From sequence record OQ973471.1: 64,000 nt of DNA; one strand, given 5' to 3'. Below the pieces are notes generated by a model, which did not search any database, had not been told where the DNA came from, and worked only from the letters and a program-made list of their open reading frames with translations. How positions within the stretch are numbered: the first letter of the stretch is position 1; the number at the start of each line of letters is the position of its first letter. Origin of the DNA: Escherichia phage AV101. Below, piece by piece: positions 1 through 61,159 of the stretch. The position numbers and the translations under genes are program-made.

Positions 1-176
1 ATGGGCACTTGCACAGCATCTATGGACACGCCGTTGTCTTCAAGATATTTGTGAAAATCTTCTTGTTTGTCGGCATCGATTTGTGGCATAGAAGAACGCG
101 AAAGCCCGAGGTTCCCAACAGGAATCCTCAGGCCGTTAATGATGTTCAACCAGTCAATAAAAGATGTAAGGAACAT
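1..176 (-). CDS. hypothetical protein, partial (3' end beyond window edge)
   Basis: Manual minus-strand translation from ATG at 176-174 (MFLTSFIDWLNIINGLRIPVGNLG...) stays open to the window edge; GAGGTG 6 nt upstream. Confidence 0.3.
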   Translation of the reverse strand, partial: MFLTSFIDWLNIINGLRIPVGNLGLSRSSMPQIDADKQEDFHKYLEDNGVSIDAVQVP

Positions 177-208
177 GACACACCTCGGGATATAGGGTTA
201 TCCCTTAG

Positions 209-400
209 TTAGCGCATCCATCGATCCTTTCTCTCTTTCTCCTTGCGTTCGCGACGTTTCTGGTCGGATCGGAATAACCAATAGAAGAAGTTCCCACCCA
301 AGATGAAAACCACCGCGATTATTACTAGGACACCCTTCACAATTTCCCAAACCAATTCTTTATCCAAATTATACCTCGTCTTCTTCAGGTCCACCGTCAA
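209..400 (-). CDS. small membrane protein (one predicted TM helix, basic C-tail)
   Basis: 63-aa ORF with hydrophobic core VLVIIAVVFILGGNFFYWLF; start is TTG and no clear RBS, so uncertain. Confidence 0.3.
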   Translation of the reverse strand: MTVDLKKTRYNLDKELVWEIVKGVLVIIAVVFILGGNFFYWLFRSDQKRRERKEKERKDRWMR

Positions 401-11052: not shown

Positions 11053-11277
11053 TCAGACGATCTTACCACCGTCACAAGGCCGAGTATCACCGGAGTTGTA
11101 TGCCAGCATCCCCTGCATCAACAAACGTCTTGGCCCAGAAACTGATTTCTGTTTCCTCAACGTACTGCAGAACCGAGTAGTGCCTGGGTAAGGAGTGTAC
11201 ACGAGACGACCTTGCATACGAGCTTCCAGTAGGAATTCATCTGTGGCTTTGCGTAACTTGAATAATTTCCAGCTCAT
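11053..11277 (-). CDS. hypothetical protein (doubtful)
   Basis: 74-aa ORF with ATGA overlap to the HNH gene stop; no other support. Confidence 0.25.
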   Translation of the reverse strand: MSWKLFKLRKATDEFLLEARMQGRLVYTPYPGTTRFCSTLRKQKSVSGPRRLLMQGMLAYNSGDTRPCDGGKIV

Positions 11278-12203
11278 TTTTCACCCTTGTATCTTTTTAA
11301 CCATTTGACGCATTTTAATGGTTCCCACCCTTTATTGAAACGTTCGATAATGCTGTTTGTCGCATTAAAAGCCTTCAAATCCTTTGTTCCGTACACATGC
11401 ATGAGGGCTTCCGCTCTTTTCATCGTCTTCAAAGATTGCATAAGCAAATCAGCTTTTGACCAATACACATCATTTTCGGGGTTCCATTTCGCTTTCTCCC
11501 AAGGCAACTTCACTAACATACCTTTCTGGGCGTTTTCTTTCTGTTTGGCTCGTTGTTCCGGTGTGAAAGAATTGGTTAAGTCCTTCCCATAATTGGGATT
11601 GAGTTTCCCGAGTTTTGCTTGTCTAGAACGCTCCGAAAATTGCTTCAAATCTGTATTGGCGCGACGCCGCTCTAAAACCTGCCTTTTATATTCAGGGTCA
11701 GAAGCCATTCTTTCATGGATTTTCATCAATCCTTTGGTAATTTTCTTGACTTGCTCTGGAGTTCTCTTATATCCATATTGGGGGTTATTCTTTCCTCTCC
11801 TTCCGTACATTGGGTTGTCTTTACCCACAAACCGAGAAACCCCTTTCCATTGTAAAGATAGTTGTTCGCTGAATTTAATTCTGAAACTTTCATATAAATG
11901 AGAATTAAACCGAATCCCCGATTTATTTCTTCTTCCCCCCTTTCTCATAGCCACCACAGCATACACCATTCTCGTGTTTGGGAAAGCCAATGCCAAGCAC
12001 AAATGCACAAGATAATGTTGCCTGCCTGTTAATCGAACCAAATTGTTCTTATCTTTAAAATATTCAGGGAACATGCTCTTGGGAAGGATGTGGTGTAATT
12101 CAGTGTAGTCACCATCAGAATATTTGAAAGATTGAACCATCCTCAAATACTTCTTGATGAAATGCGGTTTACCGCCTTTAGAAACCAACAATTCATAAAA
12201 CAT
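11274..12203 (-). CDS. HNH homing endonuclease with NUMOD3-like repeats
   Basis: HNH core ELHHILPKSMFPEY...NLVRLTGRQHYLVH; repeated GKDNPMYG / GKNNPQYG / KLNPNYGKD motifs; AT-rich codon usage unlike neighbours. Confidence 0.8.
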   Translation of the reverse strand: MFYELLVSKGGKPHFIKKYLRMVQSFKYSDGDYTELHHILPKSMFPEYFKDKNNLVRLTGRQHYLVHLCLALAFPNTRMVYAVVAMRKGGRRNKSGIRFNSHLYESFRIKFSEQLSLQWKGVSRFVGKDNPMYGRRGKNNPQYGYKRTPEQVKKITKGLMKIHERMASDPEYKRQVLERRRANTDLKQFSERSRQAKLGKLNPNYGKDLTNSFTPEQRAKQKENAQKGMLVKLPWEKAKWNPENDVYWSKADLLMQSLKTMKRAEALMHVYGTKDLKAFNATNSIIERFNKGWEPLKCVKWLKRYKGEK

Positions 12204-12234
12204 AACAGGAACTCCAAAAATGAAAGTTCCTGTT
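12204..12234 (-). promoter_or_regulatory. inverted repeat spanning the RBS of the HNH endonuclease gene
   Basis: AACAGGAAC-(13 nt)-GTTCCTGTT lies immediately 5' of the ATG and includes the GGAG Shine-Dalgarno. Confidence 0.45.
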
Positions 12235-12264
12235 ATAATATACTTTGTTAACTCACAAAGTAAG

Positions 12265-13464
12265 TTACTTTTTAAATAAATTTAGCAGGTTTTTAGAACC
12301 AGATGTCGTCGCTTTAGGTTGTCCTTCCCCATCGTAACCAACCTTCCCGCGCGGTTTTTTGCCTTGGTTGACGGCTTCTACACAACGGGTATATTTCGAC
12401 AATTCACAAAAGTGGTTCTCTAATTGTTGAACATTCATACACTGATCCCAAGGCTCTTCGGCCGACCAAAATTCTTCCCTGTTATACCCAAGAGGACCAT
12501 AAACTGCGTCCTGATTATCCCGTAGCCAGAAGATGCATTCTTCGTGGGTCATACCGTCTTTGTTCAGGAACATCAGGTCGATGCCTGCGCGACAGCCTGG
12601 TCCAGCAACCGTGAAGTGGTTCTCGCTGAAAGGATATCCAGGAATGTACGTGAAATCAACCCAGATCTGATAGGCCAGGAATGGACCAAGCCCTTCGATG
12701 TCGTCATACATGCGCTGGTATACTTCCAGAGGAGTACCAAGGCGCAGCAAGTCATGGAAATAGTTTGGATACTTGTTGACGAATGCCTTCAGAGAACGGA
12801 TAACACGCATCGGCATGTATGGTTCCCATCCCTCGATGGTATATTCACCAGGATTCTCTTCGACCAGCTTTTTGGCGACCTTGTAGTCCATCTCGTCCAC
12901 AATACCCTGGCCAACGCGATACACTTTCACCATCATCCCACCGAAGCACTGCTCCTTGTGGTTGACAACCATCTCAGGGAAAGCCAGGCATTGCTTCAGG
13001 CCGCCCGTGTTGAAGGCATTGGTGAATACCTTACCACCGTCGGCCTCGAACTTCTGAAGTCGTTCGCGGGTTGCATCGAGGTTGATCTCGGCGAATTCTT
13101 TGATCGTCATCGCGCCGCCGATAGCCTGGATTGGATCCCAGAGGTTGAACATGCGGAACATCACGCAGTTGAACATCTTGTCGGCCATACCCAGAGCATC
13201 GTTGTTGACGATGTTGTTGATCAGGTTGAGAGACTGTCTGTCGTGCTCTCTCCGGACGTTACAGAATTTAACCTGGCGTAGTATGGGATTATCAGTCCAA
13301 GGAGCAGGAAGGCGCTGGACGTCCTTCTTGACGTGGATCTGATAACGATCGCGCATCCATTCGTAAGACAGGCTGGTATGGGTCGGACTGAGAACCGGTT
13401 TGGCCGACTTTATCTTTTCTTCACGGACACCGCAGTACGGGACGTCCAGGGCTTTATCTTTCAT
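12265..13464 (-). CDS. hypothetical protein (399 aa)
   Basis: ORF with AAGAGGA RBS; sits where T4 has DNA polymerase gene 43 relative to regA. Confidence 0.6.
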   Translation of the reverse strand: MKDKALDVPYCGVREEKIKSAKPVLSPTHTSLSYEWMRDRYQIHVKKDVQRLPAPWTDNPILRQVKFCNVRREHDRQSLNLINNIVNNDALGMADKMFNCVMFRMFNLWDPIQAIGGAMTIKEFAEINLDATRERLQKFEADGGKVFTNAFNTGGLKQCLAFPEMVVNHKEQCFGGMMVKVYRVGQGIVDEMDYKVAKKLVEENPGEYTIEGWEPYMPMRVIRSLKAFVNKYPNYFHDLLRLGTPLEVYQRMYDDIEGLGPFLAYQIWVDFTYIPGYPFSENHFTVAGPGCRAGIDLMFLNKDGMTHEECIFWLRDNQDAVYGPLGYNREEFWSAEEPWDQCMNVQQLENHFCELSKYTRCVEAVNQGKKPRGKVGYDGEGQPKATTSGSKNLLNLFKK

Positions 13465-17797: not shown

Positions 17798-19302
17798 TCG
17801 TGATTACCCAGCGCCACCTTCATGAATTCCACAGGGTGGCGCTCTGCCAGGTAAAACTTGTAACGCTCGTGAGAGTGCCTAAGAGCGTGGTTCGTGCTGG
17901 CGTTGTACGATGCATCATCCACTAAGTCCCATATCCACGCGACGTCCTTAGAGGAGTGCTGACGCATCAGACGACCCAATGTCTGTATGACGCGGATATA
18001 TGACTTGCTCGGGTGTGCCAGTACAAGGTGGTGTAGCTTCTTGATCGACACTCCCTGCTGCATTGTCCCGTATGATGCCAACAGGGTGATGTCCTCTCCA
18101 TCCTCCATCGCTTTCTGTATGCGGCGGCGGTCTTCGATCTTCACTTCCCCGTTGATGACAAACACGTTGGGCTTGACTGCGCTCAGCATATCATACACGA
18201 CCATCATGTGACCATCAATACGTTCGAACATGATGGCCACGTTTCCTTTCAGATTCAGTGCCATCTTGGCGATCAGTTCGTTGCGGGACTGGTGTGTGAT
18301 AAGGTATTCTATTTCCTTGGAATAATCCCCGTCCAGACCAACAGCATCCGCCGGAGTGTGCTTCAGCTGAATCATCTTCACTTTGATGTCAGTGGCGTAC
18401 CCGAGATTGATAAGATCGCGAGCCGTGATGATCTTATGGTACGCCCCGAAGTGAGCCACCACCTGAAGCCCGGCAACTTTGGTATTCGCCAGCGTACCTG
18501 TAACCCCCAGGCGCTGGTCGGCATAGATGCAGTTGTTTAGGATGTAAGACAGTTTATCAGACTTGGAGGTGTGCACTTCGTCCACCACGACATCACCGAA
18601 CTGGTGGAACCATTCCTTCGGCTGGTCTTGAATGCCTTGCCATGTGCTGATGACGATTGGTTTGCTGATCTCCTTTGTCGCGCCCTCAAAAATCAGTTGG
18701 GTGTTAACAACGGGCTTCCAATCACTGCCATGCGCATACTCTTCGAAGTTGTCGTACAGCTGAGTGACTAGGTGGATTGACGGCACCACGATAAGCGTCT
18801 TCAGAGGACTTTCGAGAGCTTCTCTGCGCCGCCTGTAGTACCGCGCCATGACATACAGAATAAAGGACTTACCGGCACTCGTAGCCAGTTCACAGACGCA
18901 TCTGGTTTGACGCATAGCCTTGGCAATGGTGTCGTACTGGTAGTCACGAGTCTCGGCATCGATATATTCGTGATTTTCGGTGCGGATCTTTGGATGCAGA
19001 CTGTCGATGAAGTCACGGATTTCTTCATCTGGGATGTCCTGAATGTACTTCAGTGCCGGATCCAGTTCAATGGTGTATCCGTTGTTCTTACAGAACTTAA
19101 ATACCTCAAACAGCAGACCGATATCGATTAGACCAGATGACTTGGTAAATAGGCGGACAACCCCGTCCCATTTAGAGAAGGGGTTGGGAACGAAGTTCGG
19201 GTCTTCGAATTTGAAGTAGTCATTAAGTTCTTCCCTGATAGAAAGATCTGCGATACAACGCATGCGGACTTCGTTAACCTTAACAATCTGAATGTCTGCC
19301 AT
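17794..19302 (-). CDS. SF2 DNA/RNA helicase (UvsW-like)
   Basis: DEAH-type box VVDEVH and helicase C-terminal region; start set at MADIQIV, downstream of a CTAAATACCCC late-promoter-like motif and GGGAG RBS. Confidence 0.65.
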   Translation of the reverse strand: MADIQIVKVNEVRMRCIADLSIREELNDYFKFEDPNFVPNPFSKWDGVVRLFTKSSGLIDIGLLFEVFKFCKNNGYTIELDPALKYIQDIPDEEIRDFIDSLHPKIRTENHEYIDAETRDYQYDTIAKAMRQTRCVCELATSAGKSFILYVMARYYRRRREALESPLKTLIVVPSIHLVTQLYDNFEEYAHGSDWKPVVNTQLIFEGATKEISKPIVISTWQGIQDQPKEWFHQFGDVVVDEVHTSKSDKLSYILNNCIYADQRLGVTGTLANTKVAGLQVVAHFGAYHKIITARDLINLGYATDIKVKMIQLKHTPADAVGLDGDYSKEIEYLITHQSRNELIAKMALNLKGNVAIMFERIDGHMMVVYDMLSAVKPNVFVINGEVKIEDRRRIQKAMEDGEDITLLASYGTMQQGVSIKKLHHLVLAHPSKSYIRVIQTLGRLMRQHSSKDVAWIWDLVDDASYNASTNHALRHSHERYKFYLAERHPVEFMKVALGNHD

Positions 19303-19323
19303 ACAAAATCTCCCAAGGATTAT

Positions 19324-19334
19324 GGGGTATTTAG
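19324..19334 (-). promoter_or_regulatory. late-promoter-like motif CTAAATACCCC (minus strand)
   Basis: About 25 nt upstream of the helicase start; same motif recurs upstream of structural genes. Confidence 0.4.
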
Positions 19335-20077
19335 TGATCCGGCCAGACTCCATTTTGTTCTTTGTCCATGCGATGATACAGACGAACACGCTCAAACATC
19401 TTAGTCAGAATGTCATCACGGTTGAACTCAATGACGGTTGGTAGAGGGGAAGACTCGTTGGCGATCACGTTGATGAGGCGGGTGATCTTGACGCCGAACA
19501 TCTGCTGGAACATGACCGAATATAAACACAGCTGGATACTGTAATCCTCGATCATGCCCCGCGTCTTCATGGTGTTTGATGTCTTGAAGTCGATGACAGC
19601 AGGTTTACCCTCATAAACCCCGATAAGGTCTACACGACCTGCAAGACCAAGCACCTCGCTATATAATGGGATCTCCTGAGCATAGATCTTTGTCATCTTG
19701 TTCAGGTAAGGGAACAGCTGCTTGAACATGAACATGTATTCGCCAGCCGCTTCCAACACTTCTTTCATTGGGCGGTTCTTTAGATACAGTTCACACGCAA
19801 GGTGCAGCTTCTCCCCTCGGTCAGCACAGCGCATGGTCTCAAGATCAGCGGCCTCTGCGCCCAGCTTCTTCCTCCAAGACTCAAGCCATTCATGATCTCC
19901 AGTGCGTCCCAGCATAGTCGTGACGGATGTCAGTTTAACACCAGACGGTGAAACGTAATGACGACCATTCTCCGTCGTAACACACTCCAGTTCCTTATGA
20001 GGAAGTTCGTATTGCTGGAATGTGTAATGACGGTTTTCGAAGTCATTCAGCTTGCGTAGATCCTGGAGAGATGCCAT
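19331..20077 (-). CDS. PD-(D/E)XK nuclease (RecB/Cas4-like core)
   Basis: GRVDLIGVYEGKPAVIDFKTS matches the GxxD...(V/I)D(Y/F)KT nuclease motif. Confidence 0.55.
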   Translation of the reverse strand: MASLQDLRKLNDFENRHYTFQQYELPHKELECVTTENGRHYVSPSGVKLTSVTTMLGRTGDHEWLESWRKKLGAEAADLETMRCADRGEKLHLACELYLKNRPMKEVLEAAGEYMFMFKQLFPYLNKMTKIYAQEIPLYSEVLGLAGRVDLIGVYEGKPAVIDFKTSNTMKTRGMIEDYSIQLCLYSVMFQQMFGVKITRLINVIANESSPLPTVIEFNRDDILTKMFERVRLYHRMDKEQNGVWPDH

Positions 20078-21767: not shown

Positions 21768-22496
21768 TTACTTCAGCGCGTTCTTCAGATTATCGGAACC
21801 AATGCTGTTGATGACACCTCCGGCGCAGATATCTTTCGCCCACTCTGATATCACGTTGGCAAAAGAGAAGTTAAGACACTTACCAACCATGTCTTGGATA
21901 TGGGCTAACTCTGCTGCAATACCGTTCGTGATGTCCTGAGCAATAGAGGCTACTGATGCGACAGCAGTGTCGATGGCCTGAGTAACTTCAGCAGCCAGTG
22001 CCCGAATAGCATCAAGACCAGCACTGACACCCTGAGCTACCAACTCAGCCAGCTCATTCATCTTGTTTGTGATAGTTGTGAGAACACTTTGCATGGTGTT
22101 GATCCACTGTTTGCCGAGGTTCTGAATAACCCCAAATGCATTATTGATCAGATCACAGTTGTTCGGTTCTCGACCTATAGACTTCAGGGCGGACTTATAT
22201 GACACAGATGTACCGATGCGGGAATATGCCTCGTTCACTGACTGGTAGCCATAGTTGTTCAAAGTAGTGATGCTGTCGTTGGCTGAGTTAAACATTGCTG
22301 TAGATTCGTTGAGTTTGGCTGTAGTCAACCCACCTGCCGTCAGCGCTTCCTGAATCTGCGTATTTCCGGTGTTAGCCAGTGACGCTGTAGTCGCCTTACC
22401 ACTGGTGATTAACCCCTGCGAGGCGCTGCTGAGGGACGGGAGAGGATTGGTAAAGGCGTTGCCCTGCGATAGGGCGTCATAGATCTGTGCGTTCAT
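21768..22496 (-). CDS. putative virion structural protein (Ala/Ser/Thr-rich)
   Basis: Start at MNAQIYD preceded by CCCTAAATACCCC late-promoter-like motif. Confidence 0.5.
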   Translation of the reverse strand: MNAQIYDALSQGNAFTNPLPSLSSASQGLITSGKATTASLANTGNTQIQEALTAGGLTTAKLNESTAMFNSANDSITTLNNYGYQSVNEAYSRIGTSVSYKSALKSIGREPNNCDLINNAFGVIQNLGKQWINTMQSVLTTITNKMNELAELVAQGVSAGLDAIRALAAEVTQAIDTAVASVASIAQDITNGIAAELAHIQDMVGKCLNFSFANVISEWAKDICAGGVINSIGSDNLKNALK

Positions 22497-22510
22497 AAGA
22501 AAATACCCCC

Positions 22511-22521
22511 ATGGATGATGG
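22511..22521 (-). promoter_or_regulatory. late-promoter-like motif CTAAATACCCC with flanking inverted repeat
   Basis: Motif and its complement form a palindrome around 22500-22535. Confidence 0.4.
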
Positions 22522-22541
22522 GGGTATTTAGGGATCATGGT

Positions 22542-28884: not shown

Positions 28885-28892
28885 GTATTTAG
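28885..28892 (-). promoter_or_regulatory. late-promoter-like motif CTAAATAC
   Basis: About 30 nt upstream of the scaffold ATG. Confidence 0.35.
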
Positions 28893-56800: not shown

Positions 56801-57133
56801 AATGAGATAGCCTCGCCCTTCAGTGAGCGTTGCCGTAGAGGCATGCGGAAGGACTTCCCAGCGGATGCCACCGCCACCCAGCGGCAACCATCCACCATTT
56901 TCATAGAAACCCTCAAATTCGTCGGAGTCGGCATTGTAGCGAACGGAAGACGGGAGTCCTGCGCTGGCATTACCCTCGGGTAAAGTCAGGACAGCATCTG
57001 GTCCATGCTCAATCGTACCCGTGTTGAGGACACCAGCCAAAGTAGACTGCTCTTCAGCCGCCAGACCGAGAGGGAAAACAGGCTGTGTTGGTTTATTAGC
57101 CATTTCAAATACCCCTAAATGTGTTCGTTTCAT
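53825..57133 (-). CDS. tailspike protein (about 1100 aa) with extended N-terminal region and internal shared module
   Basis: Internal VKDTEVVYFSVGAVLSGYKVIYDK...GKYRWDG module; true start may be MANKPTQ at 57103. Confidence 0.8.
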   Translation of the reverse strand: MKRTHLGVFEMANKPTQPVFPLGLAAEEQSTLAGVLNTGTIEHGPDAVLTLPEGNASAGLPSSVRYNADSDEFEGFYENGGWLPLGGGGIRWEVLPHASTATLTEGRGYLINNTTGASTVVLPSPTRIGDSVTICDAYGKFATYPLTVSPSGNNLYGSTEDMAITTDNVSATFTWSGPEQGWIITSGVGLGQGRVYSREIFTQILASETSSVALNTPPIIVDVYADGKRLVESKYSLDGNVITFSPSLPASTELQVIEYTPVQLGTGGGSGSSTITWVYNGGSAIGGETEITLDVVVDDVPAIDINGSRQYKNLGFTFDPLTSKITLAQELEPEDEVVVIINGTPNIYNQIDYTLREVARVTNVKDTEVVYFSVGAVLSGYKVIYDKVTQRSYFIPELPTGTTAVSLSSSAVLVHSAGSVDLGALAVSREEYVTLPGSFDTGVTVNTKNELVVFTDGKYRWDGALPKEVPADSTPATTGGIGSGLWISVGVHSIKKWVNKNITINFKTVSELVTGTLPSGENIPLVEGMLVETAANEYGIKTISKWRVSATKDSSTYAITLANGLFANLILHRNMGYEEFGFGGTDPVANSAAIDEANRVARANAVIRKLSFPSGTFSTNQVTLDVDRRGFTFSGAGNDATILMSADSDISLHHVGIDPRDRNRDRLHWHQTIEGFTVNGGVEEKGSSAAGRAIYTAPYTTIRNKSINHRISNYDLLHLVINWHGHSQGTTNGSTRTKYGVRVRNNSIKLMGYIGGSTGQCTVSIEGMSTTLSSAANIGDTTVTVADAAGFDTWFEIAFTNSTGGVETRRITAISGNVLTLDRAMTSEFQSGTKVEVPIIGTSVISSTIETGEVRIGDSQATYLAGNYSEEAKIYITKYVRALTIIGMSTAETSPAISINADKRSSIKIEGNDTTFSIAVNITDRSGAVGERIDLYSAPALDIRMNARVQNPIILNGVYGLSSLKIEKTFDTVVQDNRFTRMTFSGFNHVAPAGGSTTEVMKFFQDTAQYGFDGYTFDLDIVCRRDGNSSATTPGILKRYGTSSATLVAQNNAPVSLFSDFNASTGYDVFIGASGNRGTVQVRPNPTSSVKASISGTVTSVI

Positions 57134-57147
57134 CTAGGGGTATTTAG
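57105..57147 (-). promoter_or_regulatory. late-promoter-like motif within an inverted repeat
   Basis: AAATACCCCTA...TAGGGGTATTT palindrome spanning the 5' end of the 1102-aa gene. Confidence 0.4.
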
Positions 57148-61032: not shown

Positions 61033-61159
61033 GCCAACGGGAATCAAAACGCTCGCGCGCGTTTAATTTATTCGAATATAACTCGCGAGGGGGCTGACGC
61101 CCTCGCTCGTAACACCGCCCTGTGCGGGCAGCACCATTCCACAGCCATGGAGGCTGCTT

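Follow-up and report, generated by a model that had tools for sequence, protein, structure and literature searches.

How does a phage hold down a potentially harmful homing endonuclease gene that lies in the path of transcription from its neighbours? The question is raised by a locus of Escherichia phage AV101 (OQ973471.1), in which an HNH-type endonuclease gene directly follows the gene for a 5-hydroxymethyldeoxyuridine (5-hmdU) DNA kinase. We analysed a 64-kb stretch of this genome, hereafter the window, which megablast places in the Ackermannviridae, with Escherichia phages YX22 and RPN242 and Salmonella Kuttervirus phages as the top backbones. All genes in the region are on the minus strand, and coordinates are given for that strand of the window (Table 1). 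Our reading, to which we assign a probability of about 0.65, is that a hairpin carried by the gene's own mobile cassette hides the translation start site on read-through RNA and keeps the nuclease low. RNA reading through from the kinase operon would fold the leader of the endonuclease gene into a 14-pair hairpin, with the Shine-Dalgarno sequence, the spacer, and the initial AU of the start codon buried in it. Binding of 30S subunits would then be rare, and very little nuclease would be made.

The sequence-only reading, an earlier inspection of this DNA made without database searches, had described a perfect 9-base-pair (bp) inverted repeat that contains the GGAG of the ribosome-binding site (RBS). 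The repeat is real and longer than was stated: ATAACAGGAACT (12236-12225) and AGTTCCTGTTAT (12213-12202) make a perfect 12-bp pair with 11 nucleotides (nt) between the arms, and RNAfold adds two U·G pairs, bringing the stem to 14 pairs around a loop at 12222-12216. The GGAG (12215-12212) belongs to the repeat only in part, half of it lying in the perfect arm and half in the wobble pairs. The stem also takes in the 8-nt spacer and, at the end of the 3' arm, the A and U of the AUG (12203-12201). That the start region would fold into a stable hairpin was confirmed. An 85-nt fold has a predicted free energy of -26.7 kcal/mol, compared with -12.1 +/- 2.7 kcal/mol for 200 shuffled sequences (z = -5.35), none of which was as stable, and the hairpin by itself accounts for -17.8 kcal/mol. 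Within 210 and 450 nt of context, pairs 1-11 of the stem are predicted with probabilities of 0.86-1.0 and pair 12 with 0.69. The window has just three perfect inverted repeats of hairpin type that reach 12 bp or more, and the pairing probability of positions -14 to +3, at 0.92, is the highest among its 54 gene starts. A search for a known RNA family in Rfam gave only a sub-threshold match to a microRNA precursor, that is, to a generic hairpin. Occlusion of the start site by the hairpin is well supported.

The leader that separates the kinase stop codon from the AUG of the endonuclease gene is under purifying selection, and its hairpin is strictly linked to the gene. A 75-nt leader query matched exactly the 42 phage records that carry the endonuclease, once each and at 94.7-97.3% identity, and the leader is missing from empty sites. 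The hairpin occupies the same place, within a leader of 58-61 nt that follows the kinase gene, in 14 of 14 orthologous loci examined, including four metagenomic contigs whose proteins are 84, 77, 60, and 59% identical. (The orthologue search in IMG/VR contributed three loci and one pattern match; a scan of JGI metagenomes returned distant nuclease-domain relatives only, and a covariance model of the hairpin located no further sites in the window or in the other loci.) Leader identity is 0.93-0.97 in alleles whose synonymous sites differ by 38-69% (Det7, phiD3, Se_AO1, and locus L014), and it is still 0.87 in L015 and 0.73 in L012, where synonymous sites are saturated at 78-86%.

Within the hairpin, the loop varies in sequence and in length (4-7 nt after 14 pairs) while the stem stays. 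Pair 12 becomes U·G in Det7, SS3, and Se_AO1, in which GGAG reads GGGG, and pairs 11-14 are altered compatibly in L015; the single-sided changes at pairs 11-14 in these four alleles all keep pairing. L012 carries two compensatory changes, from A-U to G-C at pair 4 and from A-U to U-A at pair 10. These counts come from a pair table anchored on the AUG of each sequence; a MAFFT alignment had misaligned the 3' arm of L012, and the covariance-model alignment, which mixes in reverse-strand echoes of the palindrome, was left out of the counting. In this comparison of alleles, the covariation is suggestive, and the strong argument for the hairpin is its conservation.

Several observations weigh against start-site occlusion as the function of the hairpin. 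The sequence-only reading held that translation is blocked on read-through transcripts; the placement of the Shine-Dalgarno sequence and AUG in a stable, conserved hairpin stands, and the repression itself is a prediction from folding. Both fully compensatory changes derive from the single lineage L012, whose stem also has three broken pairs (8, 9, and 13) and folds at -12.7 kcal/mol; the covariation support is thin as a result. The 5' half of the leader, TAACTTACTTTGTGAGTTAA (12267-12248, kinase TAA included), shows conservation equal to or stronger than that of the stem: it hardly varies among the 14 alleles (L012 has one change), even though the most distant of them are saturated at synonymous sites. 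A small hairpin of 8 bp with UUU as its loop can form in this element, and none of the models considered here accounts for its conservation. Paralogues at another site (in Klebsiella and Salmonella phages; loci L008 and L009) have no such hairpin, nor does F-LimVI, a chimeric endonuclease gene found at the same site, and start-region pairing in both groups is 0.32-0.50; the hairpin is therefore not a family-wide requirement. CTAAATAYC, the candidate late motif of this phage, is absent from the endonuclease leader, and no recognisable late promoter stands in or beside the 5' arm. Finally, a stem of -17.8 kcal/mol followed directly by UUUUAU fits a simple terminator pattern.

This last point raises the possibility that the hairpin is mainly an intrinsic terminator or insulator, which would end kinase-operon transcripts just inside the endonuclease gene and occlude the RBS as a side effect; the endonuclease would then be transcribed little, or only from a promoter of its own. 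A scan for terminator-like structures does list the hairpin, with 15 pairs, 4 G-C pairs, and the tail TTTTATGAAT, and hairpins after stop codons are the rule in the intergenic regions of this phage. Its usual terminators, however, are short, G+C-rich tetraloop stems with longer T runs, whereas the endonuclease stem is rich in A+U (only 4-5 of its 14 pairs are G-C), has a long loop, and is followed by the tail UUUUAU. Moreover, the U run coincides with codons 2-3 (Phe-Tyr) of the conserved N terminus and is lost in L012 (AUGUUGCUG), where start occlusion persists. Records with annotated RBSs (Mansal and vB_SenM-2) list only the RBS under the leader and no terminator, while the Marshall record does have a terminator feature, at another hairpin. 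Termination at this position would also block read-through into two downstream genes, encoding 74 and 672 amino acids. We regard termination as the principal role as unlikely; it could, in any case, coexist with occlusion of the start site.

The T4 scheme calls for a promoter with its start within the 5' arm, and the sequence-only reading had suggested looking for a late start inside the hairpin. Such a start is not supported. Neither CTAAATAYC nor the T4 late promoter TATAAATA is present there, and only a -10-like hexamer abuts the stem. In the whole window, TATAAATA has 0 sites and CTAAATAYC is matched perfectly at nine sites, every one on the coding strand and many of them in the 5' arm of similar hairpins; the shorter motif CTAAATAC has 7 sites against 1.15 expected. 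With no recognisable late promoter at the 5' arm, a T4-style temporal switch is not demonstrated. The late-motif candidates nearest to the leader, CTAAAAACC (12296-12288) and CTAAATTT, the latter noticed on visual inspection of the kinase 3' end, were rejected because one-mismatch matches occur at the chance rate and because both lie upstream of both hairpins, where a start would not free the RBS.

The -10-like hexamer reads TATTAT, TAGTAT, TATCAT, or TAAAAT in the orthologues, that is, TAnnAT in all six leader variants, kept while positions 3-4 vary. If it were a promoter with starts at about 12230-12226, the endonuclease would be translated only from the resulting stem-less RNA, at a defined time, giving a full switch of the T4 type. 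In computed folds, RNA that starts at or beyond 12228 has start-region pairing of 0.47 or less, down from 0.91, and the geometry fits that of I-TevI and gene e (PMC2988022, PMC3014915) as well as that of CTAAATAYC promoters at about nine other genes in the window. On the other hand, TAnnAT has no -35 element and no TGn, was not called by a sigma-70 scan, and resembles neither CTAAATAYC nor TATAAATA; with only six distinct variants, it could be a chance feature of A+T-rich sequence. The T4 genes mobA, C, D, and E have, in addition, been described as promoter-less cassettes (PMC2988022). We hold a timed switch to be a tentative proposal, rather less likely than not; a search of the available papers found no published transcript maps for the Ackermannviridae. 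Relief from occlusion by the hairpin might come from a start in the 5' arm driven by the adjacent TAnnAT, or from RNA processing. Equally compatible is a constant attenuation, as would be expected for a promoter-less cassette like those of the T4 mob genes.

The palindrome could instead act as DNA, as an operator for the endonuclease or another phage protein or as a site related to recombination or cleavage. It is a perfect 12-bp palindrome in DNA as well, the leader's 5' half, which hardly varies, comes close to being a palindrome too, and I-TevI is known to bind an operator overlapping its own promoter (PMC2988022). Nevertheless, the changes in the stem are of an RNA-compatible kind (U·G wobble and compensatory), a pattern that a protein-binding palindrome does not predict, and the arms are placed exactly on the Shine-Dalgarno sequence and the AUG. 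An operator like that of I-TevI was rejected: the leader resembles the corresponding DNA of empty sites no better than shuffled controls do (similarity 8.0 versus 8.2 +/- 0.9). A role of the palindrome as DNA thus seems highly improbable. An operator for RegA was also considered, on the strength of an 8-nt identity, UGUUAUGU, with the consensus obtained for T4 RegA by SELEX (PMC3014915), and was dropped because, when starts are aligned on the AUG, the endonuclease start is not among the best-matching of the 54.

What the occluded start would express had been read as a free-standing HNH/NUMOD3 homing endonuclease, an identification that database comparisons upheld. The 309-amino-acid protein matches PHROG 655 ("homing endonuclease", 7e-61), and its residues 16-90 match PHROG 12434 ("HNH endonuclease", 3.1e-17). 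NUMOD3 (PF07460) is matched at residues 136-155, marginally, at 21.9 bits against a cut-off of 20.4. In tblastn, residues ~15-159 are 32-37% identical to genes of T4-like phages annotated mobD, mobE, or Mob-like (E-values 4e-6 to 7e-12), these names being annotations; gp37 of Det7, a 92%-identical orthologue, is annotated "T4 MobE-like". The HNH catalytic motif ELHHILPKSMFPEYFKDKNNLVRLTGRQHYLVH (HH...N...H...H) is present, and H37, H38, N54, H63, and H67 are invariant across eight orthologues, down to 60% identity. The ratio of nonsynonymous to synonymous substitution rates, 0.06-0.18, and the absence of internal stops indicate purifying selection on the coding sequence. No Pfam HNH-type domain was found in residues 1-114, even at E <= 10, and sequence searches of the PDB gave no match, so the HNH assignment rests on sequence, not fold; an NCBIfam search returned nothing relevant. 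Judged by these matches, the gene is free-standing and encodes a T4 Mob-like HNH homing endonuclease with a NUMOD3 motif; annotations in many relatives already call it a homing or HNH endonuclease. As was also noted earlier, the gene is AT-rich: the G+C content of its open reading frame (ORF) is 39.8%, compared with 48.0% for the window, which puts it in the 4th percentile among 930-nt windows.

Comparison of the insertion site with related genomes, another suggestion of the sequence-only reading, turned up near-identical backbones without the gene, a probable co-conversion tract, and a replaced kinase C terminus. Among 281 phage records that match the 4-kb neighbourhood, all from related Ackermannviridae, 42 have a full-length orthologue; YX22, Marshall, and SKML-39 lack the gene despite flanks that are 97-100% identical. 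Homology to the empty sites of YX22 and Marshall stops inside the kinase gene, after GGTTACGATGG (12339-12329), and homology to empty sites resumes at CTGAATAAAGATTCCC (11056-11041). A TGA within CTGAATAAAGATTCCC serves as the kinase stop codon in empty sites, as the endonuclease stop codon in RPN242, and as the stop codon of the 74-amino-acid ORF here. From these breakpoints it follows that the cassette supplies a diverged kinase C terminus: the ending ...SKNLLNLFKK* replaces ...SVNLLDRLKKPE* and is about 8 codons shorter. This replacement presumably destroys the nuclease target and makes the carrier immune.

Between about 12800 and 12300, 100-nt bins show identity to YX22, which has no endonuclease, declining from 0.98 to 0.60, while identity to carriers of other genera (Det7, SS3, and phiD3) is 0.81-0.96 through the 3' portion of the kinase gene and 0.95-0.97 in the bins that span the junction. 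Such a gradient is a signature of co-conversion, and we take the tract itself to be probable. Endonuclease alleles are mosaic as well: in the segment 12000-11800, identity is 0.93-0.97 to Det7 but only 0.58-0.65 to RPN242. Together, the alignments point to a mobile cassette of ~1.28 kb (about 12328-11056) that would have homed into the 3' end of the Ackermannviridae 5-hmdU DNA kinase gene. Elsewhere in the kinase gene, at 12900-13000, there is a second mosaic patch, 0.64-0.82 identical to YX22 and RPN242, which otherwise match the window almost perfectly, and 0.90-0.94 identical to Dickeya phage phiD3. The kinase gene is an insertion hot spot: in CBA120, orf154 (L032 1532-1939), an unrelated ORF of 135 amino acids, occupies the same downstream site, and a different HNH gene lies between the MazG-like and kinase genes in Marshall (L004 2759-3388) and in a metagenomic locus (L016 620-1249, with a Pfam HNH match in L016).

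F-LimVI, from the Dickeya Limestonevirus phages LIMEstone1, XF4, and JA15, shares with the AV101 gene its site directly after the kinase gene, the terminal TGA, and a C-terminal region that is 68% identical over residues 132-305. It differs in its N terminus, which is GIY-YIG-like (YVYRV...GRFYYG; Pfam SegE_GIY-YIG at 8.7e-4, below the cut-off), and in having neither leader nor hairpin; its start lies 1 nt beyond the stop codon of the kinase gene. Side by side, the two proteins look like nuclease heads exchanged on one DNA-binding tail. A bolder and, in our view, doubtful extension is that the leader is a portable expression module, composed of the invariant 5' element, a private TAnnAT promoter with its start in the 5' arm, and the hairpin, which moves with the endonuclease gene among Ackermannviridae genera. 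If this were true, the timing of nuclease expression would be independent of the CTAAATAYC late system of the phage. On the same view, interchangeable heads, HNH in AV101 and GIY-YIG-like in F-LimVI, would serve one target site on a shared DNA-binding tail.

Hairpins that sequester the RBS have been shown or proposed for I-TevI, I-TevII, I-TevIII, segB, and mobE of Aeromonas phage Aeh1 (PMC2988022, PMC3014915), and the likeness to T4 I-TevI and the seg genes that was drawn from the sequence is apt, for segB and also for Aeh1 mobE. As in I-TevI, I-TevII, I-TevIII, and segB, a stable hairpin hides the Shine-Dalgarno sequence and AUG on early or middle read-through transcripts, and the Shine-Dalgarno sequence of I-TevI is likewise ~8 nt from the AUG. 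I-TevI, however, is an intron-encoded GIY-YIG enzyme whose gene is released by an TATAAATA late promoter and autorepressed at an operator resembling the homing site, and neither of these controls was found here. Aeh1 mobE is, like the AV101 gene, a free-standing Mob-type HNH gene of a T4-related phage, with its RBS inside a stem-loop and inserted in or next to a nucleotide-metabolism gene. The host gene there is nrdA, rather than the 5-hmdU DNA kinase gene of an Ackermannviridae phage, and its hairpin, as Gibb & Edgell (2007, 2009) are summarised in PMC2988022 and PMC3014915, is accompanied by a late promoter that is specific to the phage and has been mapped, as well as by an internal site of RNase E-like processing, whereas no late-type promoter is recognisable in AV101. 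T4 MobE and MobD are ~35% identical to the AV101 protein over the N-terminal nuclease region, and the intronless homing with co-conversion of flanking DNA that PMC2790892 outlines corresponds to what the sequences here suggest. They differ in insertion site and in the C-terminal DNA-binding region, and T4 mobE is described as a cassette that has no promoter and lacks such an RBS hairpin (PMC2988022).

The features of the locus are collected in Table 1. The 74-amino-acid ORF downstream of the endonuclease gene belongs to PHROG 19743, of unknown function (5.4e-52), and is an accessory that varies from one cassette to another: PMBT18, Det7, and CRW-SP2 have it, RPN242, SS3, and Se_AO1 do not, and its position is taken in metagenomic alleles by ORFs of 97 amino acids (L016 3427-3720) and 120 amino acids (L012 3426-3788). 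Where it is present in AV101, it terminates at the TGA that ends the kinase gene in empty sites.

Table 1. Features of the endonuclease locus in the AV101 window and of the F-LimVI gene used for comparison.
Feature	Coordinates	Strand	Details
5-hmdU DNA kinase gene	13464..12265	minus	directly upstream of the endonuclease; PF18723, 2.6e-79
MazG-like gene, RegA homologue (PF01818), clamp loader		minus	further upstream of the kinase gene
Probable co-conversion tract	12700..12329	minus	3' part of the kinase gene
Replacement kinase C terminus	12328..12265	minus	...GEGQPKATTSGSKNLLNLFKK, versus ...GGGEYKKRCDEVVLKRGSVNLLDRLKKPE in endonuclease-less alleles
Leader	12264..12204	minus	61 nt, kinase stop codon to endonuclease AUG; part of the mobile cassette
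-10-like hexamer TATTAT, candidate promoter	12240..12235	minus	overlaps the first two stem bases
Putative occluding RNA hairpin	12236..12202	minus	12-bp perfect stem plus two U·G pairs
HNH homing endonuclease ORF	12203..11274	minus	ATG start, 309 amino acids (from the ORF listing)
Endonuclease protein layout	residues ~15-90; 136-155; ~132-305		N-terminal nuclease; NUMOD3; C-terminal DNA-binding region
74-amino-acid ORF	11277..11053	minus	downstream; its ATG overlaps the endonuclease stop codon (ATGA)
672-amino-acid gene		minus	downstream of the 74-amino-acid ORF; DUF8224 in relatives
F-LimVI of XF4	L010 2234-3019		compared, together with L007, to window 11274-11810

Hairpins at other translation starts in the window form a pattern of their own. 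The motif CTAAATA(Y)C begins at 61033, 57147, 53561, 51078, 45940, 39429, 35146, 28892, 22531, and 19334 on the minus strand, and at each of these ten sites it is 23-42 nt upstream of an ATG. The C-rich tail of the motif usually forms the 5' arm of a hairpin whose 3' arm (GGGGTATTT and similar sequences) holds the Shine-Dalgarno sequence. On read-through RNA, the predicted pairing of the start region is 0.63-0.89 at nine of the ten sites and 0.40 at 28892; for RNA beginning 7 nt after the motif, it is 0.27-0.55 at nine sites and 0.72 at 22531. On these predictions, control of the type described for T4 gene e and soc seems general for the late genes of this phage family, and such control may explain the "cCcc" extension of the motif. 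A 2011 paper had described the late motif of ViI-like phages as unidentified (PMC3184105). Within the segments 57103-57147, 22496-22538, and 19302-19395, the mechanically assigned ORF starts at 57133, 22538, and 19395 are upstream of or inside late-promoter hairpins. Translation more likely begins at the ATGs 57103, 22496, and 19302, which directly follow the respective 3' arms.

Among T4-type phages, the regulatory principle considered here is textbook knowledge. The novelty lies in documenting, for the Ackermannviridae, that the hairpin is conserved and borne by the cassette, and in describing how the insertion is built. The logic by which T4 and Aeh1 hide the RBSs of selfish nuclease genes is thereby extended to a family that is widely used in the biocontrol of Salmonella, E. 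coli, and Dickeya. Mobility of the cassette accounts for the presence/absence polymorphism of the endonuclease and for the mosaic 3' end of the 5-hmdU DNA kinase gene, and it marks a recombination hot spot that is relevant to the taxonomy and engineering of these phages. As the cassette spreads among genera, the hairpin is kept under selection.

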